In this document: piece by piece, positions 5,641 through 34,935 of the stretch
How positions within the stretch are numbered: position 1 is the first letter of the stretch
Layout: each line of letters opens with the position of its first letter
From: Paecilomyces variotii
Lineage: Eukaryota
Strand: one strand, 5' to 3'
Assembly: GCA_004022145.1 (NCBI GenBank)
Contig: RCNU01000006.1
DNA length: 34,935 bases
Notes under the pieces: model-generated
Databases searched by the model: none
Seen by the model: only the letters and a program-made list of their open reading frames with translations
What the model was told of the DNA's origin: nothing
Made by a program: the position numbers and the translations under genes

Positions 5641-5652
5641 AATTACTATAAA

Positions 5653-9800: not shown

Positions 9801-10419
9801 TTTTAGCTATAGATTATCTCCTATAATAAGATTCTTTAAATAGTTTAATATTAGTCTTATTCCTTTTTTAATATTTAATATCTTTAGCTAAATATATTTA
9901 ATAAATCCTTTATATATTTTTTTTATACTTTTTTAGAGATTCTTATAATAATACTCTCTAATAATTTCTTTTTATTTTAATAGCCCTCCTAAAGCTATTA
10001 TAGGTCTATTTAATATATTTATTAAATAAATCTTTTTATATTTCTTCTTATACTATATATTAATAGAATATTTTATTTTTATAGTAAAAAAGTTATATCT
10101 TTTAAATAGTCTATACTTCTATAATCTTCTAACTTCTTTATTTAATTTAGTAGGTTTAAATATTCCTACCCCTTTATTTTTAATTTCTTTACTTACTTTA
10201 AAGCTAATATTATTTATTAAGTATAGCTTCTATAGGCCTTCTCTATTTTTAGTCTAATATTTATTATTCTTTTCTAACTTTAGTTTAATAACTCTTATAC
10301 CTAGAATAATAGATTATATAATATTTCTTTTCTTAACTTATTTTTTAAGTTATCTATTAAAAATACCTATACTATTACTTAATTCTTCTAGTTTATAAAA
10401 TAAATTATACTTTCTACTA
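6830..10419 (-). pseudogene. pol: Gypsy pol pseudogene (RT-RNaseH-integrase)
   Basis: De-RIP motifs on the minus strand: 'DANLPPLADEFSEEF..VDLFSGYDQL..RDLTAF' (~9345-9480) and 'VFLDD' (~9205-9219) for RT; 'LYGVHFQLETDAKTLIAQLN' (~8485-8545) for RNase H; 'DGGPENK' (~7620-7640) for integrase; 'LVLLHD...RWLGPY' GPY/F (~7080-7155). Many RIP-generated TAA/TAG stops. Confidence 0.9.
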
Positions 10420-10499
10420 TACTAGGGAAAAAAAGTACCTTAGGTTCGGGTTAGGGGTACTAATTTACTATAAAAGAAGAGGTTTAATTATTAATTTTA

Positions 10500-10870
10500 G
10501 ACTTTTTACCTAGGTAAGAATAATTTTATCCCTTATAAGGGAAATAAAATCTTCTTTTACCCAGATAATAAAAACATAAAAAATCTAGAAAATAAAATTT
10601 TTCTTACCTAGGTAATAAGCAATAATAAAAATAGAATTCTTCTTATTTAGGTAATAAATAATAATAAAAATAGAATTTTTCTTACCTAAATAATAAGAGA
10701 TAATAAAAAAAGAATTTTTCTTATCTAGGTAATAAGCAATAATAAAAATAAAATAAATTCTTCTTACCTAGGTAATAAGAGATAATAAAAATAAAATTCT
10801 TTTTACCTGGGTAATAAGAGATAATAGAAAAAAAATTCTTTTTATCTTCTTTTTATTTAGATAATAAAAG
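10500..10870 (+). repeat. Sub-terminal minisatellite, ~9 units of ~39 bp (TTCTTCTTACCTAGGTAATAAGAGATAATAAAAATAGAA)
   Basis: Directly visible tandem units, each with the palindromic core TTACCTAGGTAA (variants TTACCTGGGTAA, TTACCCAGATAA). Confidence 0.9.
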
Positions 10871-11968
10871 ACTAAGAAGATATAATATTAATATAAAGCA
10901 ATTAGAGCGGGAATTCCTAAGATCTTAAAAGATAATAATTTTATTTTAGTAAAATATTAGATAGACTTTTATATAGCTAAAAAGTTGCTAAAGCTTTCTA
11001 ATTAGATATAGTATATTATTATTAAAACCCCTTTATCTCTTATAAGAGAAATAAGTTATAAGTATATTTTCTTGCTAGATAAATAGAATAGAATCTAAAA
11101 GATTAAAAATATATCTTATATTATATTTATAAAAAACTAAAGAATATAAATATAGATAAGACTTAGGCTATCTTACAGATTTTAAATAAAAAGAAGGAGA
11201 TATATAAACTAATTATATATAGAGTAGAAAAATATAGTATTAATAAATTAAAAACTTTTTAAATATTCTTAGTCTGCAATAATTAAAGGTAGTAGAATTT
11301 ACTCTTATATCTATTAGCTCTATTAGATAAGTCTAAGCTTTTTTAATATTAACTACTTCTTTAGGCCTTTAGATAAAAAATTTTTAAGAGGCAAATTAAT
11401 AATAAGATACTTACCTAAATATATAATATAATTCTCCTATTCTCTAATATCTTAATATAAATTAGTATAATATATGTACTATTATTACTACTACCCAAAA
11501 TAGCTTAAAATAAAGAGTTAAAAGGCCCCAGTCTTACTAAAGTAAAATAGGTTTATTAAATTATAAAATAGCTAATAATATTCTATATAGGTATATCTTA
11601 AAAAATTTAGATTATTCTTTCTAGCTGCAAAACTATTTTATAATAAATAGAAGAGATCTATTATATATAATAAGTCTAACCCCTATAAAGCATAAAAAAT
11701 TATTAATTAATACTAATACTCTAAAGACTAAAAAAATATAAATAACTAATATTAATTCTAATAAGTCTATATAGAAAAGTATTTAAGGGCATTTATTAGA
11801 ATTAATTTAAGTCTAATTATAAAGTATCTTATTAGTTTAGTCGGAATCTTATAATAATAATTAATCTATTAACTATTAATATATTATACAGCTGTAATAT
11901 AGCTTTTAATAAGGCCTTTATTAAATATTACTAGAATACTATATATAAGCTATTTATTTTATAAAAAA

Positions 11969-13060
11969 ATGGCAGCAATTATAATATTATCTTTAATTAT
12001 TAATTAATAAACTAGCTATATCTAAGTAAGCTTAGTAAACTATAGATTAGATTAAGTATATCTTTAAGCAATCCCCTTTAGTTAACCTAACTAAAATCCC
12101 TGTTATTACTAAATAGCTTGCAGTAAATTAAAAACTAATAGAGCTTTTAACTAACTAATATTAAATTGCTATATTGTAATAATTCTTAGCTAACTAATCT
12201 TTAAAATTCTCTAATAATATTATTAAATTTTAATAGGCTTATAATATCTATAATAACAATATTTTATTTCTATTATATTATTACAATAGCTCTAGTAATA
12301 ATTTTTACTAACTATAATAATTATAGATAGATATACTACCCTATTAGCTTAACTGCTAATTACGCGATAACTATACTATTAATATTACCTGATAATAATA
12401 GAGATTAATAGGTTGCTCTTACTAAATATATTAAATATAATTCTGAATTTACCGATTATATCTAATATATAGTATATTAAACTATTAAACAAGAAATCCT
12501 GTAAGTCTTATATATTACTAATTGAGACAGTTTTTCTATAAATTAGTTTATTAGTTTATAGCGACATAAAGCATATTATTCTTTATATAATAAATAGTAT
12601 TTAACTATAGTTACCCAGCTATTATTTTAACTTATAACTTTTGCTTATCTAAAAGAGTTATAAATTAAATATATATATACTTGCAATTCCCTTATAAGGG
12701 AAACCCAGCTTAAATGCTATTAATATCTCCTAGTACTAGTATTCCCAGATTAATAATTTAATTAAAATAATCTATCGCGTTAGCGGATTTAAAACTTAAT
12801 AGATTTCCCTTACTAAGTAGGACTATATAACTTAAATACTCCGCGAAGAAGATAATAATACTCTTACTAAGTAATTTACCCCTAAGACTCTATAATTACT
12901 AGATATACTACTATTACTATCTAATAGCCAATATTAATAAATAGCTAAATTTCTCCTTATATAACTAGTTTTAGTAGATCTCTAAGATATCTTATATAAA
13001 ATTAATTACTATAGCATTCTCTATTAGTCGCTTTTTCTTTATATTATATAATAATATAAT
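11969..13060 (+). pseudogene. RIP-degraded intron-containing gene of unknown function
   Basis: Candidate ATG at 11969. Fungal-type introns at ~12501-12546 (GTAAGT..CTAAT..TAG) and ~12670-12733, the latter containing TTCCCTTATAAGGGAA. De-RIP reading is protein-like ('YWYSQIDDSIKTIHRVGGFKTQ..ILREED'). Boundaries and frame are uncertain. Confidence 0.4.
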
Positions 13061-13249
13061 ATAGATATATATATAGGGCAAAAAGCAATTAATAAACCCG
13101 CTATCTATTATCTCCTTTAATTACTCTTTCTATCCGGTAATAGTAAAGATATAAAATATAAGACTCTTAATTTACAAACTAAAGTTATCTAATTTTACTA
13201 GTAATATATGATTAATTTCTGTAACTATATAAAAAATATATTATTGCCT

Positions 13250-14049
13250 AAAGTAATAATTAATATAAAGAGTTATATAGACCGCTTTTCTCAACTATTT
13301 TAATATAAACTCTTATAGTTAATTTATTTATTAATTCTAATTCTATTAAAGCAGCTAGCTCTCCTAAATCTAGTAGAATAAATATAGTAATCTATAATAA
13401 TCTTAAGTTTTATTAGTAACTTTCTAATCAATTATTACTCTTATCCTAAGATCTAATATTTATTAACCTTTAATTATATTATAGTAAACAGGTAATTGTA
13501 AGCTTTATTTATATATATAATTAATAAAGAATATAAGAGACTGGGCGAATATTTAAAGGCTAAGAGAAAAGACTCTATATTAGGGGTCTCTATTAAGAAA
13601 CTAGTAGATAAATATTAGGCTATAATTAAGAATTAGACTAGAGATTAAAGCAATTAAAGAGATTAATCCCTAACTAATTTCTTTAAGTATTTATACTATA
13701 AATCTTATATAAAAGATAGTAATAGTAATAATAATAGTAATAATTATTTAATCCTATATTTATTAATATTATTAGGCATTATAATAGAACGGGATTATTA
13801 ATAGAGCTAATTAGGGGTAAAGAAAATTATTAGCTATATAATAGCAAGTTATAGTTAGGCAGCAGACTAATTCTAATAGTCTATTATCCCTCAGCATATA
13901 ATTCTACTAACTTAACATTATTAATAATTTTAATAAAAATTTCTGTAACTATATTATTAGTAATATTAGATTAATAATACCGCGCTATAAAAGAGGCTAA
14001 TTATATAAAAGATTAAGATTTTATTAGAAGGCAATAGTAGTATTTTTAC
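13250..14049 (+). pseudogene. RIP-degraded gene of unknown function, split by the hAT insertion (continues at ~22967-23030)
   Basis: De-RIP frame 'EYERLGEYLKAKRK...YDGTGLLMELIGGKE...QYRAMKEA...FVRRQWWYLY' reaches the TSD and continues in frame after it as 'QSRQGKTFIFHEKEIV'. The start is approximate. Confidence 0.45.
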
Positions 14050-14065
14050 TAGACTGGTTATATGG

Positions 14066-14260
14066 GTAATTCGGTTCGGTTCGGGGGAGGGTTAGACCGC
14101 CCATAGCGGGTTTTAGTTTAAGGCAGGAAAACTATACCTAAACCGAACCGTATTCTGGCGGTTTGGTTTAAAACCAAAAAAACCAAAATATTTGCCAAGA
14201 CCGGGCGCTAAATTAACTTAAGTTAGATTTTTCTTAAACGGTTCGGTTTAAATGGTTTAT
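14066..14260. repeat. hAT left sub-terminal (GGTTC)n / AACCG motif cluster, putative transposase-binding sites
   Basis: TTCGGTTCGGTTCGG, AAACCGAACCG, CGGTTTGGTTT and AAACGGTTCGGTTT occur in both orientations. The binding role is by analogy with Ac-type sub-terminal repeats. Confidence 0.75.
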
Positions 14261-14789
14261 ACAGTTTATAGTGTTAAAGGTATTAATATTCTATATTATT
14301 TTATATTATTATTAAATTTATATCCTTTTAAATCTATAGCTAAAAAATAGTTTAGATATAATATTATTATATTAAATCTAAAAGTATAAAGATAGTCTTT
14401 TAAGATATTATTAAATATTAATATAGATTTTAAAATAATTGTTATAGAAATATATATATATATTTATAAATTATAGTGCTAATAGAGTATTATTAAACAA
14501 TATATATAATTTATTATAAAAGCTAAAGTTATTAAACTAAAGAATAGATTTTATTTACTATTATTATTCTTAATAGAAAGTAATTTCTAGATTATTTTTT
14601 TAATAAGTTAACAGTAAAATCTATATATAATTAGTAAGTTATAATTTTTACAGAAAATATATAAATTCTATATATTTATAAAACTTACTAAAATTCTAAC
14701 TTAAGTTTAAACTACTAAGATTATATTATTCTTATAGCTATTTTTTTTTTATCTAGATACAGTTTTTAAATCAAATATTATTCTCTTAT

Positions 14790-15850
14790 AATGGATAATC
14801 CCCTAATTAAGCTATTTGATATAACTATTCTATTATAAATTGCAGATATTTATTTTGCCCCGATTTGGCTCTATTAATATGATATTATAATGATAAAATC
14901 AAGGTCTTTTTTTTTGCTAATTTTAAGAAATGATTCTGTGCTGGAAGAAGAAATTGATGTAGTTATTTTTAGCTAGGATCTTGTGGATTATAATCCCAAA
15001 TTATAAGATGCTTTCCCTTATTATTTAAGGAAGTAATTAAAGCAATCTCTTAAATATGCTAGAATTATTTGTCCTAAATTAGATCAGCTATTTATGTTTT
15101 TATTAGTGTATTAAATATAGTAAGTTAGGTTGCTTAGTATTTTTTTGCGGTAGACTATAAGTAGAAATATATATCTCGCATATTAATATTGGGCAATAAA
15201 GTTTGCCAATTTACCTTTTAAGTGGTATTAGGAAAAGAAAGAAGGTAAGAATAAATATAAGGGTGTCCCTTAATCTTATTAAGCTAAATAAGAAATATAG
15301 CAATTTTAAATAAAGTAGCTTTAAAATTAGTAAAGATATCCTTAAGAATAATCGGATTAATCTTAATGGTAACTATTGCGATCTAGGGCTAATATCTTTC
15401 TTTTCTAAAGGCGAATTGAATGAAATAGTTTTAAAAGAGAAATATTAAGATTTTATAAAGTAATAGTTAAGAGAAATTATAAGTTATTTATTATTATAAT
15501 AGCTCTAGATGCGGAGGGTGGTTTAAATAGATAATCTGAGCTAGAAAAGAGCATTTTAATTTAAGTTAGAATATACTAGAAGGTTATATTTAAAGTGTTT
15601 AGCGCTATTTTAGTTATATTACTAAATGAACTAACTATTGCCTATATATAACTTGGCCTATAGAGAAATAAGATAAGTAATAAATATTATGTGCTAATCT
15701 TTTAGTTAAGTATATCTAACTAAAACTTAGGAATCTAAAGCGCCTTTAAGATATTATTATAAGTTATTGAGAAAAAAATGCAAGCGGTAAGTTATTGTAA
15801 GATATTACTAATAGTAGAGATAATAATAAATTAAATATATAATAGACCTA
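14790..15850 (-). pseudogene. Possible second cargo gene of the hAT, unknown function
   Basis: Coding-like composition. One minus-strand de-RIP frame reads as protein ('PWIAMVTIEINPIVLEDIF...EGHPYIYSY...VNWQTLLPNIDMRDIYFY...HLAIWDYNPQDP'). No family recognised and the strand is not certain. Confidence 0.3.
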
Positions 15851-16339
15851 CTTATAATTTAACTTAAGTTAAAATTTATAAGTTTGGTCTTTAAAAAATA
15901 GGTAAGGCTTGCTTATTTAATTAGCAGTAATCTTATCAGTAATAGTTAACTAGAGTAGTAATAAAATAATTAATAAGAGAGCCTAGGGAGTTTCTAACAT
16001 TATATACCTATATATACACGATTTCTTAATTAGGTATAGTCTACATTAAGAATATATATATTATATTATTTTTTCTTTTATTGTATTTATTTCTTTTACT
16101 AAATATATTCTTTAATAAAAAGAGTAGATTTTAACCTGGTTAAAATTTGATTGAGGAACTCTAGGTAAGGAATAGTATATAGATTAGATAACAATCTAAC
16201 TTAAGTTAGATTGTTTTTAAGGATATAAGGGAAGATTATTATATATTACTATGAGTTACTAACCTTATTATAATTAAAATTCTAATTTAAGTTAAAGGCT
16301 CTATAACTTTACTTATTAAAGAGATAGTATAAATAATAA

Positions 16340-19260
16340 AAGCACCTATTAAATAATAAGGCAAACTCTCTAGGATTTTAATATAGAGAATTTAGCTAGA
16401 AGTATTAGCAAAAGAGACCTAAGGCTTATAATTATAGTAATTCTATAGAACCCTATTTAGATTTTAAGCTTATTTGGATTAATATGCTATATAGGCCGAA
16501 GGCTTATATAGCTAAGGCTAAAGTCTTTTTAATAATAAGAGATAATATAATCTGCGCAGAGCTTGAGAATAAATATCTGGGAATATTGTGTGTAGATATA
16601 AGAAAGCTTAAAATATCTTAGAAAGATATAAAATATAATTAAGATATTAATACTAACTATATTAAGAACTTAAAGAATAAGTTCTATATTAGTATATAGA
16701 GATTTAATATTAATATATAAATAAAAGCAATCCTAAGTGCTAAGGACTTTAACCTAGTATTATAGGTATATATAGCGGAATTATTAGAATTAGCAGATAT
16801 TAGTAATATCTGCAGTCTCTTAAGGCAGCGGTAGGGTAGAGATAATAACTTTTTTATCTATCTGGAGAAGTGGCTAGAAGAGCTTATATTACTAGTATTA
16901 TAAGCTAGGCAATATTACTGCATAGCTCTTCTAAAACTGCTGATTAAGTAAAAAGAAGCGGCTATTATTAAAGCTATTAATTATAAAGAAAAGATAATTA
17001 AGAGATTATAGGCTGATATATATCCCTATTTTAACTTAAGTTAGAATTTAGCTAATTGATTTATAGGTGTATCTTTAGGCTATTAATCTTTATAATAAGA
17101 TAATATTATTAGAAGTTCTTATAATATTACAATCTAATTGTAAAGATATTGCTTATATTAATATTAATAGAGAGTATATATTCTTATTTATTAAGGAGTA
17201 GGAGAAAAAACCTATAGACTAACGCAAGGAACTGCTAAAGAACTATAAAGAGTTTAAAAATTAGGCGCGCCCTATTATTAGTGTATTACTTAATTACGCA
17301 GCTTATATTATAGCCCCTCTATATAGTAATGTTTAGTTATAATATTTATAGGAGTATTTGCGGACAGCTTATAGTTACTCTTATTAGAATTATATATTAG
17401 GAGAGATAATTATAAATATAAAGCTAGATTAGGTATATTTAGGGATTTAATTTTAATTTTAATTTTCTAATTTAAGTTAGATCTAGATTACAGAGTTTAA
17501 GAAGTTTTTTAGCTTTATTAAGATAATCTTTATAGATAAATAGAGCGGAATAGTATCAGCAGAGGATTAGAGACTAATTATTAAGTATTATTATAGCGCA
17601 AGCAATTATACCTTATATATGTTATTCTTTCTTTTACGGGCAGATTATAAAAATAATAGATTTAAACTATCTCTAGATTACAGGTAGTTTAATAAATAGT
17701 TATTATTTTGCTTAAAGATTCCTGTATTATTTTTTAAGAACCCTATTTAATAACTATCTTTCTTTATGGCTCTGCCGGATAAAGTATATATATAAATATA
17801 GAAGAATGTTTTAGAGAATAAAGAACTTAAGTTCCCCTTATAATAAGTTCTAACTTAAGTTAAATATAAAAATTAATTGCAAACTAATTATTATAAGAGC
17901 TTATAGATTAATCTTAATAATAAAATTAGTCTCCTATTAAAATCTATATTAAAACATATTATATTCTAATATAATTTAGAATAGCAGTATTCTGCCGTAG
18001 CCTCTAAATGTCTCTAAAAATTCTAATAGATAAATGAACTTTAATATTCCCTCTTTTATAAGTCTAATAATATATATACTACTAAGGGCTTTGTAAAAAA
18101 ACTTACTAATAAGCTCTATGAGGACTTCCTATAGACCTAGGCAGATTTAAAGCATTATATAATAACCTTACTTAACTATAATTAGAATTAATACTAATAT
18201 CTTTTAGCTATTAGAACTATATAGCGACCTCTGCTTTTAGGATATTAAGGAATAAGATAGTTATAACTAATAGTATATATATCTTTTCTGTTTTAAGCGG
18301 CGTTATTAGGCCTGTGTCTTTTATATAACTTCTGAAGCAGTCTTACTCGACTTTAAGGGTATTATAAATTAATTTAATAATAAGAGTAAGATTATAAGTC
18401 TGGACTATTCTAACTTAAGTTAAAACTAATATAATATAGGGTAAATAACTTTCTACCTTTATTGCCTTTAACAATATTATATAGTGAGCCTAATTCTAAT
18501 ATAATAACGCAGTAAAGAACCTAAAAATCCTAAAAGTTAACTAGTATAAGGATGATTTAAAGACCTAATTTAATATTGCCGGGGCTCTATAGATATATTG
18601 ATTTATTAAAAGAAATATAATTTATATTATAAAGCTTAGCTTCTCTGAGACTAATAATCATAAGAAGGATTCTAAGGATCTTATTAAGACTAAGGTATAT
18701 ATGCCACTAATCTAACTTAAGTTAGAAATTAACCCGATCTAGGAGGAATAATATTAGTATTTATAAATATTAAGAGAGGTTGCCGATCTTTTAATTAAGT
18801 AGGACTAGGCTCTAAATATAGATAATATAAATAAATATCTGCGGCGCTTTACGCTGGACTATAATCTTAAAATTGAGAATAAATATATTGTTTAGAAGAA
18901 GTTGTATACGCCTTTTTTAACCTTATTAAACTAACTACTAATAAATAAACGCCCTTATAATAATAATAAGGAATAACACGAGCTGGAAAATTAGAAACAG
19001 CTCTGAGCTGTTATTTTTGATATCTTAAGGAAGAAATAGAAAGTATTAAAGGATTCTATAGGTAAATGGATTAATATGTCTATTCTAATTAAAGTTAGAA
19101 CAAGATTTAATTAAAATTCTAGATTGAGATGCAGAGATTAATAGGGCGAATAATATGCCTTAAAGGAATAGTACAGATAATAATAATAAAGGTAAGTTAT
19201 TTTTCCTATTAATTATATTATTAAACAGTTATAATAATATTATTATTATAAGTATAGGAA
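16340..19260 (+). pseudogene. Multi-intron cargo gene with N-terminal ParB/Srx-like (DUF3723-like) domain
   Basis: De-RIP frame: 'YLGILCVDIRKL..W...NRDI...HVKNLKNKF..GIQRFD....MKA' (~16573-16730), 'VLQAGQHRRIAL' (~16895-16930), an intron at 17018-17066, then 'YLWAVDLYD' (~17070-17096) and 'LRSN.......DGE' (~17127-17174). This motif order matches what I recall of fungal DUF3723 proteins (G.HR...W.VDLY...DGE). Further GT-AG introns at ~17433-17493, ~18394-18439, 18695-18742 and ~19062-19122. Confidence 0.6.
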
Positions 19261-19737
19261 TAGGGCTAAGTTTTTAGTTTAGGTTTGGATTTTTTAATTT
19301 AGCTCTGGGTAAGCTATCTTAATAGTGTTTGCTTAGTATATAAGAAACTAATTTAAGTTAAAAGTAAAATAATTAGGTTTTTTTTAGACTAATAATATAA
19401 TCTCTATTTCTAAATTAAATTATCTAAAAGTGGTTTTTCTTTAATAATAAGAACTTATATTATTTAGAAGCTTTATCTCTAACTTAAGTTAGAGTAGATT
19501 TTATTAATAGGACAGAAATTAGTTCTTAGGGATTTAATTTGAATTAATATAGCTGTTGCTTCTTGTTTCTATTTTAAGATAATAATTAGGGATAGAAGAG
19601 TAGGACTGCGAAGATAGGGACTATAAAATAAAAGAAAAAAATAGTATATCTTAATAATCTAGGCTAGCTCTATAATAACTTAAGATATAAATATATCTGA
19701 GTAGGAATCTAACTTAAGTTAGAATACTATAAATATT

Positions 19738-22600
19738 ATGCCGCCGCCGATACTATTATTTTTAAGTTTCTTCTTTTCTTTATTTTATTCTAATGCGGAT
19801 ATATTAGGATTATTGGGTCCTTTATTATAGTTTCAGAATTATATTATTTATACTCTTGCAGAGACCTATAAAACTCCTTTATCTTTAAATACTAATATCT
19901 AGGATATAAATTTTGATTATAATCTTATTGAACAATATAAGCCTTAATTTAAAGCTAATATTCCTAACTTAACTGAACTTAAGACAATAAGATATAGTTG
20001 AGGAAAGGCTATTATCTATCTAGCTCTTCTAGAATAGGTTTAGATTTTTAAATCTTAATAAAGTAAAATAGAGTTTATAAAATAGCAGTCTAAGTTTTAA
20101 TAGGTAAAAATAAAGATTTAATTATATATATAGTAATATTATTAAGAAGTTATAGACAGTATTTCTGGCGTCCCTTATATATAATATTTATATTACTCTA
20201 TATTTCTTTAATATCTTTATAAAGGAGGAAATGGCACCAGCTTAATAGCCGCCTATATAAAAAGGGCTATATACTGATCTAGAGATAAGACTCAGAAAAA
20301 TAGCAATATTTAAAATATATTAATTGTAAAGGTAAGAATTAGGTAATTAATATAGACTTTATTACTAATATTTTCTTTAGAAAACTTTTAATCTAATATA
20401 TATACTAGATGTATTATATAATCAGATCCTGTATTTTATTATAGGATATTGCTAATTGTTTTAAATAGTTAAATATATTTAGTTCTGCTGTATATTATAT
20501 ATAGCTGCTGGTAATTTATATCTAGAGTTATCTAACTAATATTAGATTTGAGCACGCCTTTTTAAACTTAAGGAGATTAATTATATTAAAATATTGTTAT
20601 ATTTATTAGAGTAAGGAAAGATTTCTCTAGTATTAAATTATTAGATTAGTTAAAATTAATATTCTTTTCTTGCTATAACTGGGTATTTTATTAATATAAA
20701 ATAAGTATACAGAGAAGTATTCTTAGCCTTCGATCCTGTCTATAGATTATATACTAGGAAAAACTTAGCTAAAATACTATTAAAGAATCTTTGTCAATAT
20801 AATCTATAATATTAGATTCTTGCTATTATTACAGATAATGCAAATAATAATATTACCTTAATAGCGGAGCTAGATAAAAGCCTAAAAGGTAAGCTTAAAA
20901 CAGATTTATTATTAGAAGATTTCTAAGATATAATACTAAGTTAACTTATTTTAAATCGCTATTATATTCTATATTTAGCATATATTTTATAACTTGCAAT
21001 TAATGCTTTACTAGGTAAACTCTATATTAATGCTTTTATTAATAATAGTATTAGTTAGGATATAAAAAAGGATAGAAGCCTATTATATTCTTAGGGTATC
21101 CTAATATTATTAGAAAAGGTATTCTCTATCTAACTTAAGTTAGATTAATACTAATAGATTTCTGTATAGGTTTGCAAGATTATTAGATTTATTAATGCGA
21201 GCCCTTAGTGTTAGGAATATTTTTTAATATTATAATAATTAAGTACTAGTTAGCTAAAATTATTACTTCTTAATTGCTAGATATAATAGAATTTAATATA
21301 TCTTATGCTTATATATATCCTTAAACTATATATAGTAATTGGATAATTTATTATATTATAGGCTAATAAAGATGTTTATTTTCTGATATTATCCCCTACT
21401 AAATGGTATTAGGTTAAATATCTTATTAAGTTAATCTGGCTATTCTATAATCTTACTCTTGCTATATTAAAGATAAATAGTCTATTAATTTATAGGGTTT
21501 TTGAAATCTATAATACTATCTTTAATTATCTTAATAACTGTATAGAGCGTTTAAAATTAAAAAAAGCTATATAGAAGATTTAACTCCGAGATGCTTTATC
21601 TAAAGCTTATAATAAGTTATGAACTTATTATGCTAAAATATATGAATCTTAAGGATTTATATATGTAATTGCAACGATCCTTTACCCCAGCATAAAATTT
21701 AAATATTTTAAAACTTAGGTCTGGTAAGATATAATAAAAAACTAGTATAATACTTATAAAAAGATTTTTTATAAGGTATTTTAATATTATAATAATTAAA
21801 ATCTAAATATTAAGGTATAATCGGGAACCTATTTATTAGTCTTAACCTTAGATTATATGCTTACATAATCTAAATATTGTTATTTCCCTTTAAGTACTAT
21901 TAGTATTTATTGAGAAATTCAGATTTATCTTACTAAAGGTAATATTCTATCCAATATTATATTTAAATCATATAATATTATTCTAACTTAAGTTGGATTA
22001 GGTTTATTAGAATCAGATAATATCCTTAATTATTAGAGAATTAATAAACATTAATTCCCAATTCTTATAATAATAGCCCGAGATTTTCTTATAATCCTAT
22101 TAAGTGGTATTAGTATAGAATAATTATTTAATAGTGCCCGAGATATCTGCTATTACTAATATAGCTGACTACTTCTTAATATAATTTATGCTTTAATACT
22201 TCTTATGTGTACTAAAAATTTTATTATTTAGTAGGAGTTTAAGGTAATAACTAATAATATAGATATAATACCTGATAATCGACAATTTAAAAGGGAGGAG
22301 ATTAAATCGCTAAATCTAATTAGTAATAATGAGGATATAGATAATATGTCAGAAGGAGAGATAGATATAGATAATAAAGATTATCGGATAGAGTAGTTTA
22401 GGGGTTAAGGTCTTTTAAGTATTTAAATAGATTAACCTATTATTGAGTCTATTTATAATAAAGGAGAATAATTAGATGAATTGCTTATACCTAAAGTTTT
22501 TATATATTCTTAGAGAAATGTAGTAACTATAGATAGATCTAAGTCTTCTAGTTATTACTTGCGCTAGATTAACTATATTAAAGGCTAATATAAATATTAA
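19738..22600 (+). pseudogene. hAT transposase pseudogene
   Basis: De-RIP motifs: 'KISLALDCWTS.NQHSFLAVTGYFI...YREVFLAFDPVYGSHTGKNLA' (~20618-20770), 'ITDNANNN' (~20828-20851), 'HIPCLAHILQLA' (~20963-20998), 'TRWNSTYLML' (~21281-21310), and dimerisation domain 'FPIL..MARDFL.IP.SG..VE.LF.SARDIC' (~22055-22150). Introns at ~20332-20380, 21119-21169 and 21939-22001. ATG at 19738 is a candidate start. Confidence 0.92.
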
Positions 22601-22759
22601 GAATCTAACTTAAGTTAGACTCTAATATTATATTCTAATATTATTCTACTAATTTTTAGTTAATATTTAGTAATAGATATTATAAAGAAATAAAAATCTA
22701 AATAGTTCTTAAAGATTAATAAGATTTATATAAAAATTTAGATTAATCTAAAGTAATTA

Positions 22760-22945
22760 AAAAAAACTAAAAAAATTGAATTAAACTAAAAAACCTAAAA
22801 AAACTAAACTTAAAAAAACTATATGGTGCATTATAAACTATTGGTTCAGTTTATAAAGTCTATAAACTATTCCGGTTTATAAAATTATAAACCGAATTAA
22901 ACTATAGGCGGTTCGGTTCGGTTTAGTTCGGTTTTTTTAGTTTTC
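22760..22945. repeat. hAT right sub-terminal AACCG/CGGTT motif cluster
   Basis: GCGGTTCGGTTCGGTTTAGTTCGGTTT and AAACCGAA, plus mutated AAACTA copies upstream. Confidence 0.75.
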
Positions 22946-23176
22946 TATAACTACTCTAATCTTTACTAGAGTTAATAAGGGAAGACTTTTATATTTTATA
23001 AAAAGGAAATTGTTTAATCTATATAATTATAATTATTATAGCAGTATAACTAAGATTAAATATAAGATAATTGCTTTAATATAGGTTCTAGCAAGTAGAT
23101 AATTAGAGGCTTATTTAAGATATTAAGGTCTATTATGCCGTACACATAGAGATATATATATAGAATATATATATCT

Positions 23177-23178
<2 letters not shown>

Positions 23179-23216
<38 letters not shown>
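23179..23216. repeat. (TA)19 microsatellite
   Basis: Direct reading; shorter TA runs lie just upstream. Confidence 0.95.
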
Positions 23217-23220
<4 letters not shown>

Positions 23221-23949
23221 ATATTATGCTAATATAACGCGGTTCTATATTACAATAAAAGTCTATAAAATATCCTTAAAATAAAACTGATAATTACTTA
23301 ACTATCTGAGTACTTAAATGTTTTAATTAATTATTATTAATAATGTTTACTAAGCAATTTCCTTTTAATAATATTATAATTCTCCTATATTAGCTCTAAT
23401 ATAGATAGTATTACTATATAATTAAATGTTTTCCTTTTAATAAAATCTTAGTAAACTAATATAATTCAGAAATAATAATTAACTATTATATTTAATCTAA
23501 TTCCCTTATAAGAGAATTAGGGGACCTATAAGTAGTAAGATATCCTAAGATATTTATCTATTGCGAGCCCCTGAGAAAAAAAATCTTATTATTTTAGTAT
23601 TTTTTTACTAAAAATTAATTTATAATCTTACTATTATAATAAAATGCTATACTATTAATTTTATACTATACCTTGCCGATTAAAGATATTATTAAAGAAA
23701 CTTAATAGCTAATAAGAATTAAATTAATAAGCTATTTAGGATTTTCTTAGCAGCTTTAGCTAATTTAGCGGTATTTTAAGTTTTTAATAATCTTATTCTA
23801 ATTTAAGTTAGAGAATTCTTAATAAGCAAATATATAAAAAAATATAATTACTAAAAGATATTATAATAATTATACTATTATAATTAAGGCTATATTAATA
23901 AAGTTATTTGGCCTCCGAATTATCTAGTAATATTACTAAGATTTAATAA

Positions 23950-26900
23950 GGAGTCTCTATATTAGTTACTAATAACCCCCCTAAAATATAAGATATTAAA
24001 ATTATTAATAATTTGTAGATGCCTATAATAGGCTAGATATTACTAGCAGTAGATATTAATATCTCCCTTACTACTAATAGTAATACTAATATAATAATTC
24101 TAACCTTATTTTAAATATTAGTAGAAGACATAAATTAAGACTATAAAGATCGATTAATAGCTATTTTAGAGCTTACTTTAAATTCTTTTAACTTCTTTAC
24201 TAAAGCCTTACCTAGTTAATTATTAATAGCCCTAGTATTTAAATACCTAATTAGCTTACTATTAATAAGTTAATACTCTATACCTCTAATAAACTTAATT
24301 AAGATAGAAGAGAGTAATAGTCTTATTTAGGACTTATCTAACTATAATACTCTTACTAATAAGGGTAAAGCCTATATTATAAATATTAAAAGCAATAATA
24401 AGATAATAAGCAATTTTAGTTTTAATCTATTATTTTCTAATAAATTATTTAAGCAGGAAATTAATACCCCTAATCTAGATAGAGATAATAATAATTTTTA
24501 TAATTAAATTATTGCATCTATAAACTGTAAAACTCTTATAGCAATTACCTATAAGTTTACCTATTTATTACTTTATTTAATTAAGTTATTAATTAATTAG
24601 CAGCGCTCGACTTTATTAAGATTATATCTTATCCTTTATTTAACTTTAATAAAGCCTATAATATGCTTTATAAATAATACTATATTAATTATAGCAGTAA
24701 TAATTATCTATATAGAGATTATAGATTGAAACTTTTATAAAAATCTGAGACTCTTATAAGGACCTTTTATCTTAACTATCTTTATCTTATTAATAATTTA
24801 AACTATATATTTAATTATCTTAATAGCAATAATTTTCTATTTATAATTATCTTTACCTTCTACTACTAAAACTCTAAATATTAGCTAGATATTAGTAATC
24901 TTCTTTAATACTCTATATAAGGGCGCTACTTCTAATTAGCAGAAGATTATAAATAATTTATATAGTTTATTATTATATATAGGGGAGAGTTACTAAATAA
25001 AGCTATAATAACTGCTCTCTCCCTAAAATATATATAAATACTCGCAGATTATATCTGTTTTATTTTTAAAGAAGATGCTAAACTAATTATATATAATATT
25101 TTATATAAATAGCAGATCTTAGGACTTAATTCTGTAAGACTAAGTATATAATAATAATATTATTTCTAATAAATCTTTATTAATAAATAGGAGGGGTTCT
25201 TTCTATAATAGGAGGATATTCTAGCAGATAAATAATAATATAATATAATTTTAATCTTTTATATATATGCTTTCGGAGGTAATATTAACCTTAAATTATA
25301 TAAATATAACTTTATACCTAAGACAGAAAATGTTAATTTATTTTATAAAAGAAATTAAGATAATTTTATAATAAGTCTGCCCGCAGAGCTTTATTCTTTA
25401 CTAATATTTAAAAATTAGCCTATATCTTTAGAGCCTAAAAACCTATTAATACCTTTAGAATATAAAGATCTCTTTAAAACTATCTCTAATTTTAAAGGTA
25501 ATAGCAAAGTAATTAGCTCTATCTTAAATATATAATATTAATTATACTTAGACAGTATATTAGCTATATTAGATTTTAAGTTATATAAATATATTAATAT
25601 AAAATATATCTCTTATATTTTTTATAATATTACTATTAAATTATAATCTCTCTCTTATAAATACTTATTACTTCTTATTAATCTTCTAGCAATATAGGTT
25701 AAAGAATTTAATTTTTATAAAAATAAGTGTAGTATCTATCTATAGGCAATAAATATATATTAAAATAATTGCTAAATATCTTATCTTCTATTATTTCTAT
25801 AAATAGGAGTTATTATACTAGCCGCTAAATATATAGAGCAGTTAACCTAAGCAATATAAGTAATATAAATAATTAAATTCTAGGCATATAATATATAAAA
25901 GTATATTATCTAGTTTAATAAATAAGATCTTATAGTTATATAAGGGCTTACTATATTAATAATATGCCTACTGCTATTTATTCTTACTACCTAATTAATT
26001 AAGAACTACTATTAATATACTTTAGATAAAATAATAGAGTTAAGGTTAAGTAAGCCTGAGAATATCCTATAGGAAGAAATTTACTTACCCTTATTTAAAT
26101 CCTCCTCTAGTATTAATTATAATAATTATACCTATTAGCGTAAATAAGTATAATTATAATAGGTAATAAGAAGTAATTAGTATAGTTTATGAATAGAATA
26201 ATAGTTTATAATCCCTGTAAATAAATTTACTAGGCTAAAATCCTATTATAAAATAGCCTTTATACTGATTATCTATTTTATTAATATATTCCTCTATTAT
26301 ATAGATATATAGAAGGATCTTATTTAAGAAATCTCTTATAATATTAGTCTTTCTATTTATATTCCTTATTATAATTTAAAATTAGGAGTAATTTCTCTTA
26401 TACTAATAAATATTAAATCTACTATTAATATAGTAATCTAGATATTTCCTATAATTATAATCGCGTAACTTTATTTCTTTAAAATAATTTAGCTTAGCTT
26501 TTTATAGCAATAAACTTAAAATAAAAAGCTCGCCTTATAACTTATAGCGTAAGAGGCAGTTATAATTATTAATTATTTTAGCTACTATATTATTATTAGC
26601 GACTAATATATGCTATTATATTATATTCTATACTATATTAATTCTTAAGACTATCTATATTATTACTACTAGCTCTATATAGATCTAGATATTCTTTTGC
26701 TTACCTAACAGACCCTAGTATTAAATAAATAGCTCCTTATTAGGGATTTAGATAAGCCTTAGTTAATATATCTTAAGGCATTAATTATCTATTATAGTAA
26801 GTATATAGCTTAATATATCTATTAATAAATTGCTATAGAACAATTTATTAGACTTATATTAGGAGATTTTTTTTATTATAGACTTAATATTATAATATAG

Positions 26901-27550
26901 ATAGTGATTTTTTTTAATTATTTCTATGCTATCTATATATATAATTATATTATGCGATATTTATAGCAGTAAATAAAGGGATATAGTTATAATATCTATA
27001 TTATAATTATACAGAAGATTATTAATAACTATAAAAAGGACCTATAGCTATTAATATAATAGACCTACTTAAAGATATATTCTATTTATATATATAATTA
27101 TATTAATCTTAAGCATTAAGATCTAGATTAGGCGCTAAATACTAGCTATTAAATTCTTCTATTTAACTTTGCAGAGATCTTTTAAAAGATAGCTAATAAG
27201 TCTAAAACTATATATTCTATAGATCTCTTTATCTTCTCCTAATTAAACTAGTTCTAGTACTTTTATAGCATAATAATATATATTAAATATATTATTAAAC
27301 TAGCGGCTAGGCTAAAGACTATTATTTATCTTCTCTCTATAGCTATTTAATAAAGCTATATTTAGATATTCTCTAATCAGCTAAGCAGCGGGGTATTTTA
27401 TATAAATAGTTTTAAAGAGCTATATAAAACATAGTTACCTATAGTAGCGCCTTATAAGGGTTCTATAGTTTAACTATAGGTCTATATTTTCTTATAAATA
27501 AACATGCCTAAATAGATTATATCTGCATTTAATAAATATATTGTAAAATA
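23950..27550 (+). pseudogene. Large RIP-degraded gene of unknown function
   Basis: Long plus-strand de-RIP frames read as protein: 'LAALDFIEIASHPSFDFDEAYDML' (~24597-24670), 'GRYFQLAEDYE' (~24922-24955), 'GVVIPAAKHMEQL...IKFQAYNVQKH...QGLTTL' (~25806-25958), 'KLALATYGVR' (~26526-26555). It could be more than one gene, and the boundaries are approximate. Confidence 0.45.
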
Positions 27551-28279
27551 TAACTAGAATAATAATTATAATCTTACTAATTACTTCTAATATATTTAAG
27601 AGATTCTAACTTCTAACCTTAGATAGAAGAAATACTAACTTGCTATTATCTATACTACTGTCTTTATATATTATACTATTTAATTAGGGACTAATAAATA
27701 TAAGAAACTAAAGGTAAGTAAGAAGTCTATAAAGATCTAGATTAAAGAAAAGCTATAGATAAAAGATCCCTTCTAATAGGCGGTTATCTTTATTATTTAC
27801 CTAATATAGAAAATCTTTCTTAAATATTATAAACTAGAATAAGTGTTATAATTATAGTATATATAGGTCGATTTTAATAATAGACTTAGTTAGTTCTTAC
27901 TTTCTTATATATAATCTTTCCTATACTAATTAATCTTAATATATATAAGTTATTAAAAAGCAAAACTAAGTATTTTTATTTAATTAGAATAGCTAGAGAT
28001 ATATAGTAATTAAGCTAAATTATATATCTATAAGTTAATAGCTTGCCTATTCTCTGCCTATAAACTATATATTATATTTAAAATCCTATAATAGGAGCTA
28101 TAATATTAGATTTTTAAAATATTTATTCTAAACATAATAAAAATAGAAAATATAGTTTAATTAAATTGGTTTAAGTCTCTTTTAGATTTAAACATATAAT
28201 AGTATATAGAGTATAGACTTTTTATTAGTAAATTATATAATTTTATTATAATAAGTTCTCCTAGCGCCGCTTCTTTAAT

Positions 28280-28565
28280 TAAAAATAAGTTATTATTTAA
28301 ATAAGAAGTCTAGTTTCCTTTATAAGAGATAGTTATTACTTAGATAAAAATAATAATTAATTTCTCTTATAACAGAATAAGTTGTTATCTAGATAAGAAG
28401 CTAAAACTTTCCCTTAATAAAAGGATTATTACTTAAATAAAATTTCTCTTATAAAAGAATTATTACTTAAATAAGAATAATATTTAATTTCCCTTATAAG
28501 AGAATTATTATTTAAGTAAGAATAATATTTCCCTTATAAAAGAATTATTACCTAAATAAAAAGCT
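28280..28565 (+). repeat. Minisatellite, ~6 units of 40-47 bp (TTTCCCTTATAAGRGAA...TTATTACYTARATAAGAA)
   Basis: Visible tandem units of the same family as 29680-30425. Confidence 0.88.
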
Positions 28566-28654
28566 AGCTTAATCTTATAGTCTTAGAAACTATTATTAGA
28601 TTTTTAGCATTATCTATATCTTTACCTCCTTTAATATTACCTGATTATAGTAAT

Positions 28655-29395
28655 TATAAAACTATTACCTATATTACTAATAGTATAAAGGTTAAGACTA
28701 ATTATAATAAGTCTTAACCTTAACTGCTATATTAACTGTAAGATATTGCTATTTTATAATTATTACCTATATTACTAATAATATAAAGGTTAAGGCTAAT
28801 TATAATAAGTCTTATCCCTATATTATTATATTAGCTACTTAGGATATTACTGCTCTATAATATATTATTAATTATTTTATATTAGCTGCTTAAGATATTA
28901 CTGCTCTATAATTATTACTTATATTATTAATAGTATAAAGGTTAAGGCTAACTATAATAAGTCTTATCTATATACTGCTATATTAGCTGCTTAAGATACT
29001 GCTTTATAATTATTACCTATATTATTAATAATATAAAGGTTAAGGCTAATTATAATAAGTCCTATCCCTATATTATTATATTAACTGCTTAAGATATTGC
29101 TGCTCTACAGTATATTATACTTTATATTAGCTGTTTAAGATATTACTACTTTATAACTATTATCTTATTAGTAATAGTATAAAGGTTAAGGCTAATTATA
29201 ATAAGTCCTATATTATTATATTAGCTGCTTAGAATATTACTGCTCTATAATATATTACTAATTACTATTATATTAGCTGCTTAAGATATTATTACTCTAT
29301 AACTATTACCCTATTAATAATAATATAAAGGTTAAGGCTAACTATAATAAGTCTTATCCCTATACTACTATATTAGCTGCTTAAGATATTACCGC
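28655..29395 (+). repeat. Complex tandem repeat, 6 long units (98-152 bp) with an internal ~50-bp sub-repeat
   Basis: The anchor AAAGGTTAAG occurs at 28687, 28785, 28937, 29035, 29181 and 29327. The sub-unit TATATTAGCTGCTTAAGATATTACTGCTCTATAA occurs once or twice per unit. Confidence 0.9.
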
Positions 29396-29679
29396 TTATT
29401 ATAAGAAACTTAATATAATACTTTATATTAAAATCTATATTATCTGCTGTAAGAGTAGTTGCTATCTAATTAGATTTTATTATTTCTATATCTCTATTAT
29501 AGGTTAAATCTTAGTTATATTAAAGAGTATATATAGACTATACCTGCAAATATAGATAGAATAAATTATTTTTACCTAGTTTTCTCTCTTCTTTTTCTAA
29601 AAGATTTATTCTTAGTTTTAGATATTATGCAGCTTACTAGTATAAGCTATATAAATAATTAATAAAAAACTAAATTAAG

Positions 29680-30425
29680 ATAACTTTCTCTTATAAGGGA
29701 ATAATTATTACCCTAATAAAAAGTAATATTTCTCTTATAAGGGAATAAGGTATTATAAATAAGTAAGATTTTCCTTATAAGAGAATAATTATTACTTAAG
29801 TAAGAAGCGATATTTCCCTTATAAAAGAATAAATTATTACCTAAATAAGAAGCTAGCTTTCTCTTATAAGGGAATAATTATTACTTAAGTAAGAAGCGAT
29901 ATTTTTCTTATAAGGGAATAATTATTACCTAAGTAAGAAGTAATATTTCCCTTATAAAGGAATAAGTTGTTACCTAAGTAAAAAGCTAGCTTTCTCTTAT
30001 AAAAAAATAATTATTACCTAAATAAGAAGCGATATTTCCCTTATAAAAGAATAATTATTACTTAAGTAAAAAGCTATATTTCCCTTATAAAGGAATAATT
30101 ATTACCCTAATAAGAAGCTATATTTCCCTTATAAAGAAATAAGTTATTACTTAAGTAAAAAGTAATATTTCCTTTATAAGGGAATAATTATTACCTTAAT
30201 AAAAAGCTATATTTCCCTTATAAGAGAATAAGTTATTACCTAAGTAAGAAGCTAGCTTTCTCTTATAAGGGAATAAATTATTACCTAAGTAAGAAGCTAG
30301 CTTTCCCTTATAAGGGAATAAGTTATTACCTAAATAAAAAGCAATATTTCCCTTATATTATTTAAGTAAGAAGCAATATTTCCCTTATAAGGGAATAATT
30401 ATTATCTGAGTAAAAAGCTAGCTTT
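29680..30425 (+). repeat. Minisatellite, ~17 units of ~44 bp (TTTCCCTTATAAGGGAATAATTATTACCTAAGTAAGAAGCGATA)
   Basis: Directly visible. Each unit carries two palindromic cores, TTCCCTTATAAGGGAA and TTACCTARGTAA. Confidence 0.95.
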
Positions 30426-30829
30426 TATTTATAAGTAAATATAATCTATTTTTCTTAAGCTGACTATTATTATAATATATACCTGTTAATTATATAATTA
30501 GCTTATTTATCTTTACTTAATCTTTAGGATATTAAATTAAGCTATATTATATAACTAATACTTCTCTATATATTTATTTAATTATCTTAATCTAATCTTA
30601 TTTATTTAATTATCCTAATCTAATTCTTATTGCTTAATACTCTTTATCTAGTAATATATATATATAAATTATTTAGGTAATTTAATAGCGAGAATAAGAG
30701 ATATAAATATATTTTTTCCCCCTAGAATCTTTTACACTTCCCCTTAAAATCTTTCTCTTTTTATATCTTTATTTATTACTAAACTTAATATATCCCTTAA
30801 ATAACTTCTTTTATAGATAATAGTTAGTA

Positions 30830-32670
30830 ATTAATATAATATAGCCCTATAAATAATTACTGCTATTATATTTAATATGCCTTATTTTTATAATAGATTA
30901 CCTTAGCTAATCTAAGAGATCTTAAGCTAATATAGAGAAGACCTTTAGAGAACCTCTTCTCCTTAATATTATAACTATAAGCCGCAGGCTAATTCTTCTA
31001 AGAGTAAGTATTTTTAATCTCCTCTTCTTATATTATATTAATTGTAAATAGCTATAGATCTTATTATAGTCTCTTTTAAGCTTAATAATAAACTAGACCT
31101 AAAGAAGCTAATCTATAGGATTAAAAATCTTCTCCTTAAACTTCATTATATTATTATAGCATTTAAGAGTATACTAGAATAATTATCTATACTTTTAAAT
31201 AATAGATAAAAACTTTTTTATTTTTTCTTGCTATATTTTACTATATAAATATTTCTTTTTTAAATAGATTTTTCTTAATAAATATAGGTAATTAATTAGG
31301 CGGGATAATTTTTATTAGCTTTTTAATATTTTATCTAGCTATAGCCTCTTTCCCTATTATGTTTATTACTTAATTATTAACTATATCTATTAATTAAGAG
31401 AATAATTCTAAAGAAGTTATAGATACCTAATTAAATAAGTCCTCTTTATATATATAATATCGCTTAAGTTAAGACTTTAGATAAAACTAATTATATATAT
31501 TTATATTTATAGGGAGTAGGGCCCTGTATTCTATTAGCTATATTAATTATATTATTCTTATATTATTTTATAGTATATAATAACTTAAGGGTATATCCTT
31601 AAGGGCTAAATATACTAAATATTTAGATAAAAATAGCTTAGCGCACTATTAAGTTATGCAGCTTAAACTTAAACCCTAATAATTAGGAATTAAATAAATA
31701 TATAAGAGGTAGTTAATAAGAAAGAATTATTTCCCTTATTAGAGAAATTAGATAGAATAAGAAAAAGTTATTTCCCTTATAAGAGAAAAGCAAATAATCC
31801 TATTAATAATTAAAATGATTAATTATTTAGTATAAGAAATACTTATATAATTATTCCTACTATCTAGGAATATTATAGGTATTATTATTATACTTATTAT
31901 ATATATAATTTTCTCTTCCTCTTACTATCTTCGCCTACTCCTTATTACAGATAATATTAAGTTATTAATATTTTTATTTATAAGGTAATTTCCCCTATAA
32001 AAGAATTTATATAATATTAAAATCTAGAGTAATAATATAGATCTATCTATTATGCTCTTAAAGATAGTAAATAAATAATTAAACTAGACCTAATTATTCC
32101 TAAGTAAGATTAAATTAAAACTGTCTAAATCCCCTATAAAATCATTTTATTCCTTATCCTCTAAAGCATCTATTAAATCTATATTAAATTCTAGGATTAT
32201 ATCTTCTATAATTAGGGTAATATAGCTAATTTTAAGATTAGTTATAGAGAGGCTTTAAAAGATATCCTTATAAATTAATAATAGGTAGAGAATAATCTAA
32301 TATTAGTTTTACAGCTGCTAGGCTAAGAATAATAATATATTATTAGATTTCTATATCTTTAATAGCTAATATCTGTTTAAATAAGCTTAAATTATAATAC
32401 AGTTAAATCGACTTATAGGTTTATATTAGACTAGCTAGTATAAGAAGATATATTTAATAATTATATAATAAAAGCATATACTAAATATATTTATCTCTAA
32501 TTCTTGCTGTACTAATAATTAGTAACCTATATATATAACTTATTAGATTATATACTATAATTCTACTATAAATTATATAGTTTTTAGAACTCTATATATA
32601 TTTTGCGTTAAAGATATTCTCCTATAGCTATTTTAAGGCTATTAATACTACTATAGATATTATTTATCTG
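30830..32670 (-). pseudogene. Possible RIP-degraded gene(s), unknown function
   Basis: A minus-strand acceptor (TTTTTTTGCAG, ~32668-32679) and protein-like de-RIP frames ('LEMAMGEYLQRK', 'FELHDLIVRQAIL', 'KLMKIVPPDQLP'). No family recognised. Confidence 0.3.
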
Positions 32671-33279
32671 CAAAAAAAATAGAATATAGGATATTAATTA
32701 AATAAGAGGAAAAGAGCTGCTATTAGTATAAATACTAATACTAATAAAGATAAAAGAGGAATAGAATTTAAAATCTTAAAAAAAATTAGAAATTAATATT
32801 TATTTACTATTTTAAATGACTTAACTAAATAATAGATTACTATTCTTAAGATTAGGGCTAGGTAATTTTAGCTATTTATTAGGCCTGGCAATTAATTATA
32901 ATCTTAATATATCTCTTAATTAAGACTTTCTATTAAAACTAGGAGAGTTAATTCTTATACATAGACTAATCTAAGTATTTAATTAGCTTAAAGGATAAGT
33001 AATCTAATAATATAAGATAAATAAAGAATTAAATAGTAAATAAAGCAGCTAAATATAAATCCCCCTTTTTATCTCCTTAGATACCTCTTTTATTATTCTT
33101 TAACCCTTTTATAACCTAAAAATTCTACTTTTTATTATAATTATTTTTTACTTAGAATCTTTTTATTATAGCTTTTATATTAAAGTAATTATAAATTAAT
33201 CTTTTAGCCTCTAGCTATTTTAGTTATATTGTTTAAATTATTTATTTAATAAGTTTTAACTATATAAGATAAGATTTAG

Positions 33280-34800
33280 TAACTAATATAGGAAAGTCTT
33301 CTATTAATATTAATAACCTTTACTTATTATAATTCTAATATATTATTGCGAAGATCTAGTATCTTTAAGCCTTCGCTAACTATATAGTATATTAAAGATA
33401 TTCTATATTTATACTTAATTTAGGAATAATCTAACTAGTTTATTAGTATTTAAGCCGCCTTTCCTATTAATATAACCGATTATTTGCCCTTAAAAATATA
33501 TTAAACAAAGGTTATAAAATTAATATTTACCCTCTTTAGCTAGATAAAGATATTTTGCAGGCTATAAAGATAATATATATAGAGATTATTAATATATCTT
33601 TTTAAAAGGTACTTATATTAATACTTATAGATATTAATCTGTCTACTCTTCTAGAATATAATAGTAGATATAATTTTATCTTGTTAGATAATAATAATAA
33701 TATATTTAATCTTTTATTTAAAATCTTCCCTATCTTAGATATTAATTATTTGTTAGATTCTTTAAAATCCCTAATTTAAAGGCCCTATAGAATTTTATAT
33801 AGATTAGAGTATATATATAAATAATAAATTATAAATTCCCTTTATTAAGATACTATAGATTAATAGGTTTTCTCTTATATAATAAATTATAATATTAAGT
33901 TTAGTATAGAATTACCTATACCTTTCTTAAAATAAGCTCCTTTATTCTAATAATATAGTATATCTATATTTATAATTAGGTAGAATTATAAAATTATAAG
34001 TAGTATTATTATAAAGATTAAAATAATATTAAGACTATATTTATCTGCTTTATAATAGCTAAGCAAGAGATACTATATAAAAAGAACCTTATTTCCTACT
34101 AAATAGTAATATATATTTAATATAGCTAGTCTAGCTAATAGGGGAAATATAATATATATTTATATCCCCCTCTATAAGCACTACTATAAGTATATTACTT
34201 TCTATCTTAGGGTAAATATAAAAATAACTGCTAATAAGATTCCTTTTATATATAGCTTTATATATAAGGGCTTTTCTTATTATAGCCTTTTTAATTTATT
34301 ATATAATTAATTTTATATAATAATACTAGCAGGTAAAGATTAGTCCTAATTCCCTTATAAGAGAATTAACTAAGATAATTACTTAAATAGATAAAGCCTA
34401 TAATCTAATAAGATATACTCTTATATATAGATTTATTTACTAACTAAGCTATTTTAATATAATTACTATTAATCCGCTATTAATAAATATTTATACTAGA
34501 AGAAGTTATTATTTAATACTATTTAATATAGAAAGTCTCTTTATAATAAGATTCTGTAATTAAAATATAAGGACACTATTTAGTTATAAATAGCGACTAT
34601 AAATATTTATAATTAAAGTTAATTTAAGCTTATAGGTATTTAAGCGCAATATAAGTACTTAAGTATAATATATTTTAATTAGTTAGTGCCCTAAAGATTA
34701 TTATATTAATTTATGCTTTATATCTTTATACTAATAAACTGCAGATCTATAATCTATAGAATAACCTATATAATATCTTAATCGCGTATAATAGATATAT
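33280..34800 (+). pseudogene. Possible RIP-degraded intron-containing gene next to the telomere, unknown function
   Basis: De-RIP frame 'IAKIQYLQAFANHM...YSSRLSYQYNRLFALENVLNKG...KDILQAMK' (~33345-33570). Candidate introns start at ~33609 and ~34333, the latter containing TTCCCTTATAAGAGAA. Confidence 0.3.
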
Positions 34801-34841
34801 AAATTTAATTATTAATCTTTTATTCTAATTCTATTTCTTTA

Positions 34842-34935
34842 TTAGGGTTTAGGGTTTAGGGTTTAGGGTTTTAGGGTTTTAGGGTGAAGGTTTTAGGGTT
34901 TTAGGGTTTTAGGGTTTAGGGTTTAGGGTTTAGGG
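34842..34935 (+). repeat. Telomeric repeat tract (TTTAGGG / TTTTAGGG), right chromosome end
   Basis: One TTAGGG, six TTTAGGG, five TTTTAGGG and one TGAAGG unit. The G-rich strand runs 5'->3' towards the end of the sequence. Confidence 0.95.

Follow-up and report, generated by a model that had tools for sequence, protein, structure and literature searches.

A RIP-mutated, telomere-adjoining repeat with its own palindromic motif in Paecilomyces variotii

Does a short palindrome that recurs on both sides of a hAT transposon mark a single mobile element, and if so, of what kind? The question is raised by a stretch of Paecilomyces variotii DNA of 34,935 nucleotides (contig RCNU01000006.1, assembly GCA_004022145.1; hereafter the window), in which an initial annotation had tied positions 10420 to 34841 into one multi-gene unit carrying a 16-bp palindrome. 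The window has a G+C content of 20% and is strongly depleted in CpA/TpG, as is typical of fungal DNA altered by repeat-induced point mutation (RIP). We find that the palindrome unit is a real, unclassified repeat that falls into none of the known classes against which we could test it. Our preferred reading, to which we assign a probability of about 0.45, is a dead, RIP-mutated, low-copy multi-gene element of ~15-15.5 kb without the hAT, linked to the telomere and equipped with its own binding sites. The features of the window are collected in Table 1.

Table 1. Features of the window, from left to right.
Feature	Position	Strand	Description
copia element	664-5945		repeat pair 664-941 / 5668-5945, 278 bp, 90% alike; nested in Gypsy-like element
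Gypsy-like pol frames	5946-10421	-	flank outside palindrome element; cut off at ~10421
left end	10422-10461		CTAG, followed by a stem of 6 bp (8 bp with two T counted as C changed by RIP) enclosing TTAGG/TTCGGG/TTAGGG telomere-like units
single array-like unit	10503-10543	+	contains palindrome 10528
39-bp tandem array	10589-10847		6.5 copies; carries second palindromic motif
fragmented gene remnant(s)	10950-13700	probably +	with introns; palindromes 11035, 12687; weak, shifting frame signal
hAT transposon, separate family	14050-22958	+	8-bp target duplication 14042-14049 / 22959-22966
extended palindrome, ~25 bp	23496-23522		around 23501, upstream of long gene
largest gene remnant	23850-27780	+	~1300 codons in all; candidate intron 24551-24600 between a short first exon and ~1070 codons in a single register
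first palindrome array	28315-28561		~40-45 bp units; 5 recognisable copies
compound tandem array	28655-29421		~46-52, 98 and 146-152 bp units; palindrome-free
44-bp tandem array	29685-30420		17 units, 15 recognisable palindromes
further gene remnants	30730-34841	both	best signals 31900-32300 minus, 33250-34335 plus
telomere repeat	34842-34935	+	TTTAGGG type; joined straight to palindrome element

The palindrome and the continuity of the unit

We scanned the window for the palindrome, tolerating up to three C>T/G>A changes plus one other change. The element contains 28 copies, 8 single and 20 in arrays. All eight single sites that had been claimed were recovered within 1 bp (10528, 11035, 12687, 23501, 31731, 31772, 31990 and 34350). 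The arrays, credited earlier with about 23 copies, hold 20 that we could recognise (5 in 28315-28544 and 15 in 29686-30395), and the higher figure is fair because a few further decayed copies are visible there. Three copies are exact, 16 have at most one mismatch and 23 at most two. The same scan found none in the hAT, as had been stated, and one weak extra match at 5553, inside copia. The compound array sits between the two palindrome arrays.

Compared with 100 dinucleotide shuffles per segment, the palindrome is in excess in all three non-array segments. Allowing up to 1, 2 and 3 mismatches, we counted 2, 2 and 3 copies in 10420-14051, 1, 1 and 1 in 22975-28270, where the excess thus amounts to a single copy, and 2, 3 and 4 in 30450-34841 (shuffle means at most 0.09 in each segment). 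The corresponding counts were 0, 0 and 0 in the LTR-element part, and 0, 0 and 1 in the hAT (shuffle mean 0.13, maximum 2). The palindrome as written is probably a product of RIP itself, and its four central letters may originally have been any pyrimidine-purine pair.

We also counted a second palindromic motif (TTACC..GGTAA type): the left segment has 5 instances and the right arrays have 10, with none in the LTR part, the hAT, 22975-28270 or 30451-34841. The sites at 23501 and 34350 share the extended palindrome (23496-23522 matches 34344-34369), and the unit at 10503-10543 matches the unit of the 44-bp array 19 kb away.

The hAT that interrupts these segments is flanked by the target duplication ATTTTTAC/ATCTTTAC and gives a Pfam match to Dimer_Tnp_hAT (E 0.00039) just below the family cut-off. 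Contigs from public sequencing runs show loose ends of other hAT copies at 14050 and 22958-22960, and its summed contig depth is 900-2500. In one contig of public run X2, position 14041 is joined directly to 22959, without the hAT; this join and the 8-bp target duplication show that both flanks belong to a single repeat. A strict scan finds 8 copies of a palindrome that the hAT has for itself. RIP has affected the window's hAT less than the majority of those found in four public runs, whose reads differ from it mainly by C>T and G>A changes. An (AT)37 microsatellite lies at 23152-23224, ~190 bp to the right of it.

The proposal that all these segments form one unit thus stands as regards the flanks of the hAT, and it also stands for the link between the left array and the right arrays; what attaches the last 4.4 kb is only the palindrome and its 25-bp extended form. 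This last part has no long similarity to the rest of the element, and we found no long internal duplication among the element's segments. A patchwork of independent repeats, heaped at a chromosome end and having in common a motif to which a host factor binds, would fit that dissimilarity as well as the mixed orientation of the genes. We nevertheless consider a patchwork improbable: the left and right flanks were continuous, two motifs and an array unit are common to parts 19 kb apart, and both motifs are missing from the neighbouring LTR elements and the hAT.

We estimated copy number in run X2, in which 0.90 of the window's words occur and from which the window itself may derive. The left flank is present there in at least three versions, which overlap 11992-12362 with 0, 41 and 51 differences over 371-431 letters, and summed depth over the left flank is 177-253 vs 55-66 for single contigs. 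These figures indicate about 3-4 copies, an estimate made for 12.3 of 24.4 kb (10860-23140), summed contig depth not being the same as copy number. Cover of the left flank is thinner in runs X4, X5 and X6, and the presence of the element therefore differs between samples.

Two palindromes had been placed inside introns, for which we find weak support. The placement of 34350 is partly upheld, as it lies within a plausible GT-AG intron (34333-34390): upstream, the best frame has 9 stops in 144 codons vs 18 and 21 in the others; downstream, no frame stands out (17, 15 and 16 stops in 136 codons). The site at 12687 has a plausible acceptor at 12733 and no clear donor.

We also looked for the palindrome beyond this genome. 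A motif scan gave no locus in viral contigs, two bacterial matches in prokaryote genomes and three loci in metagenomes, none of which extends into a match with the window. The three metagenome contigs (L001 9838-10098, L002 9960-10057 and L003 708-933) look bacterial and have 41-42 bp tandem arrays with near-identical 16-bp palindromes of the TTCCCTCGTGAGGGAA and TTCCCTTACAAGGGAA types; their likeness to the window is probably convergence. Six spellings of the palindrome found no match in a literature search that stopped short of subscription papers and supplements. In the literature searched, neither the element nor palindromes of this sort are described for fungal transposons; the family could be part of a transposon library given in a supplement.

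Gene remnants read through RIP

The unit had been thought to hold about five genes. We find good support for one long gene; the remaining signals are too fragmentary to be counted. We used a RIP-aware codon model, which chose the expected frame in 4/4 control regions and follows the Gypsy-like pol as a single clear frame to ~10400. Over 24560-27780 one register scores +9.9 on the plus strand and a similar +8.3 in register on the antisense strand; the scores of the four remaining frames run from -53 to -104. The long gene likely, though not certainly, lies on the plus strand, and the candidate intron would link two plus-strand frames, the upper starting at ~23850. It is palindrome-free inside. 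The remnants near the telomere include four palindromes (31731, 31772, 31990 and 34350) and the candidate intron 34333-34390.

Conventional searches returned almost nothing. With Pfam, six-frame translations with X at stops (10.6-14.0, 23.2-28.6 and 30.4-34.8 kb) gave two sub-threshold matches (E 0.14 and 0.064), and the long frame gave none, whether whole or in five pieces. The long frame had no match in PHROGs, and its ~1070-codon part none among plasmids by tblastn. Against 1.84 billion representatives, phmmer gave one 34-residue match, with a query in frame only for its first ~250 residues. Three word-seeded homologue searches, for which at best ~3 intact 5-residue words per 100 were expected, found nothing; nor did Rfam, nor PDB sequences for three frames and for a Gypsy control. 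No intact relative, protein family or binding protein emerged from the searches run, and a single-sequence AlphaFold model (pLDDT 48) was set aside. 

The controls show how such negatives are to be read. The copia element at the left of the window, whose frame is unbroken across ~1470 codons, gives a Pfam match to RVT_2 (E 2.3e-13). The adjoining frames at 5946-10421, which we take to be Gypsy from motifs read by eye, have no Pfam match. As Pfam and PDB miss even these adjacent frames, including the reverse transcriptase, their negatives weigh little and do not show novelty.

Since the standard searches overlook even these frames, we built RIP-aware profiles from bacterial proteins. A profile of 25 bacterial RecQ proteins reached a maximum of 9.9 bits in the window. 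Four held-out helicase pieces (24-31% identity) scored 22-42 bits after simulated RIP, a control that is optimistic because the simulation shares the mutation model and is without introns. The RecQ core is absent from the retained part; a gene may have been lost past the present telomere. Other profiles were less telling. A PIF1 profile, calibrated at 48% identity only, peaked at 10.1 bits outside the element, and an uncalibrated DDE_Tnp_4 profile from four proteins found nothing. A bacterial tyrosine-recombinase profile, calibrated on closer relatives, gave 14.7 bits at 11906, a level equalled by 3/20 column-shuffled profiles. Among the controls, a bacterial reverse transcriptase profile missed the Gypsy reverse transcriptase, and the top match of an integrase profile was marginal (13.2 bits at 3627, in copia). 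The earlier view that the mobilising gene is either novel or lost needs qualifying: in a calibrated test a RecQ/SF2 helicase proves absent, and an ordinary transposase or recombinase may be hidden, given that Pfam and PDB miss the Gypsy-like frames.

The left boundary and the telomere junction

The element begins inside the Gypsy-like reading frame, its exact left boundary being inferred from where the pol frame ends. The fold of the left-end stem is not stronger than that of shuffles (z 0.56). Helitron 3' ends have CTRR followed by T, with a hairpin nearby, and non-autonomous Helitron copies are without the Rep-PIF1 helicase gene. Read from right to left, the unit could be a rolling-circle element with its 3' end at CTAG 10422-10425 and a hairpin 8 bases inside. 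It would then be a non-autonomous Helitron that has captured genes, or else a new type that relies on the 1300-codon protein. The minus strand does read CTAG then T with the stem-loop adjoining (10421-10461); yet the hairpin is not significant, the boundary is inferred, and the PIF1 profile, with its calibration at close range, finds nothing. We hold a rolling-circle origin to be quite improbable.

On the right, the unit runs to position 34841, which is a junction with the telomere, not a demonstrated terminus. One interrupted unit (GTGAAGG, 34884-34892) and T-runs of varying length occur in the telomere repeat, where read errors are possible. We rejected a right terminus at 30725 because the inverted match was too weak: the 17 bp at 30709-30725 form an inverted, RIP-compatible match to the left end that was chosen post hoc, and its level is also attained in 2.7% of shuffles and in 7% of the control 40-mers. 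Past this match there are still four palindromes.

These ends bear on the distinction between a telomere-linked element and an internal one. An ordinary internal DNA transposon or a Starship-like element could have inserted into the Gypsy-like element and later been cut by a break healed with telomere repeats; the palindromes would then be transposase or regulator sites, and the mobilising gene would be hidden by RIP or lost. The sharp left boundary in the pol frame, the subterminal arrays and the blindness of standard searches here are all compatible with such an origin, and a first gene that points inward occupies the captain's position of Starships (PMC9156397). We still regard an internal origin as unlikely, if with a real chance of being right: there is neither a second terminus nor a target duplication, the inverted match at 30709-30725 is weak, and the tyrosine-recombinase score is one that shuffled profiles also reach.

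We favour the telomere-linked reading since the telomere is joined directly at 34842 and we could recognise, ahead of the telomere, nothing of a second half of the Gypsy-like element. The layout also resembles that of Magnaporthe subtelomeres (PMC1635262). The several versions of the left flank, their uneven presence between samples, the hAT-free join and the likeness of the motif arrays to those of VANDAL (PMC5735166) count in its favour as well. The reading is weakened in that the right end is accounted for just as well by telomere addition after a break, a common event at the ends of fungal chromosomes (PMC1635262), and in that our searches turned up no intact relative, protein family or binding protein. 

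If the telomere-linked reading holds, the element would have become the chromosome tip, replacing all beyond a point within the Gypsy-like element, and the hAT would have jumped into this copy later. The palindrome would most likely be bound by a dimeric protein that the element itself encodes; the palindrome copies are kept outside the long reading frame and multiplied through tandem duplication. The family could thereby switch on or shield its own copies, like VANC for VANDAL, and might spread by recombination between ends or through nicking by the 1300-codon protein. The evidence so far is one dead copy without an identified gene. It supports this mechanism weakly, with end-specificity, binding, anti-silencing and the route of spread all being proposals. 

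A bolder version would assign the unit to a new class of mobile element in fungi, one that is specialised for life at chromosome ends and lacks any helicase, transposase or reverse transcriptase of a familiar kind. The 1300-codon protein would mobilise it as a rolling-circle-type nicking enzyme with the hairpin-CTAG as stop signal, and an element-encoded anti-silencing or recruiting protein would read the private palindrome on non-coding DNA, as a fungal VANDAL/VANC counterpart used also by unrelated hAT and Gypsy families. We find this version very doubtful.

Comparison with known systems

Starships share with the palindrome element the build of a large multi-gene fungal element with its first gene at one end (PMC9156397). 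The palindrome element differs in that no DUF3435 captain or cargo family was detected, a weak test since Pfam controls fail, and in having no target repeat and tandem arrays at its end.

In layout the element is closest to fungal subtelomere units (PMC1635262; 10.1101/2024.02.27.582403; PMC9910759). TLH subtelomere regions with helicase-associated repeats are described from Magnaporthe oryzae (PMC1635262) and, as TLHcr of 6-13 kb, from Fusarium oxysporum (10.1101/2024.02.27.582403), and the Magnaporthe units have arrays at the inner boundary, telomere-like motifs and a palindrome in one repeat (PMC1635262). Like these, our element is a repeated unit adjoining the telomere repeat, with private tandem arrays, an array at its inner boundary, telomere-like motifs, a palindrome in a repeat and transposon insertions. 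Unlike them, it has no RecQ helicase core, holds several genes, exists in only ~3-4 copies and spreads its palindrome over the whole unit. A RecQ gene defines TLH regions and is missing from the retained part, which therefore fails as a TLH region. Class H and related subtelomeric AT-rich elements of Aspergillus flavus are likewise RIP-mutated telomere-adjacent repeats with no identifiable transposon; compared by description only, they differ in that the section on them in PMC9910759 mentions neither genes nor palindromes. Fungal chromosome ends contain RIP-decayed repeats that defy classification, and the known set would be broadened by a telomere-linked unit of several genes that lacks the RecQ helicase usual there.

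The suggestion that private palindromes reflect a general strategy is plausible and has a described counterpart in plants. In VANDAL elements of Arabidopsis, the binding sites are motifs private to a family that stand in tandem arrays of non-coding DNA (PMC5735166). Both systems are multi-gene elements in which a short motif, specific to the family, occurs in non-coding DNA and introns and has been multiplied by tandem repeats, and within the window we do find the motif in non-coding DNA and in tandem arrays. VANC motifs differ in being 9-bp and directional, the word palindrome being absent from the main text (PMC5735166). The host there is a plant, and no VANC-like or Mutator gene was identified in the palindrome element; the analogy is one of working only. 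If private palindromes are indeed sites for element-encoded proteins, fungi would have a plant-like system of sequence-specific self-recognition or anti-silencing.
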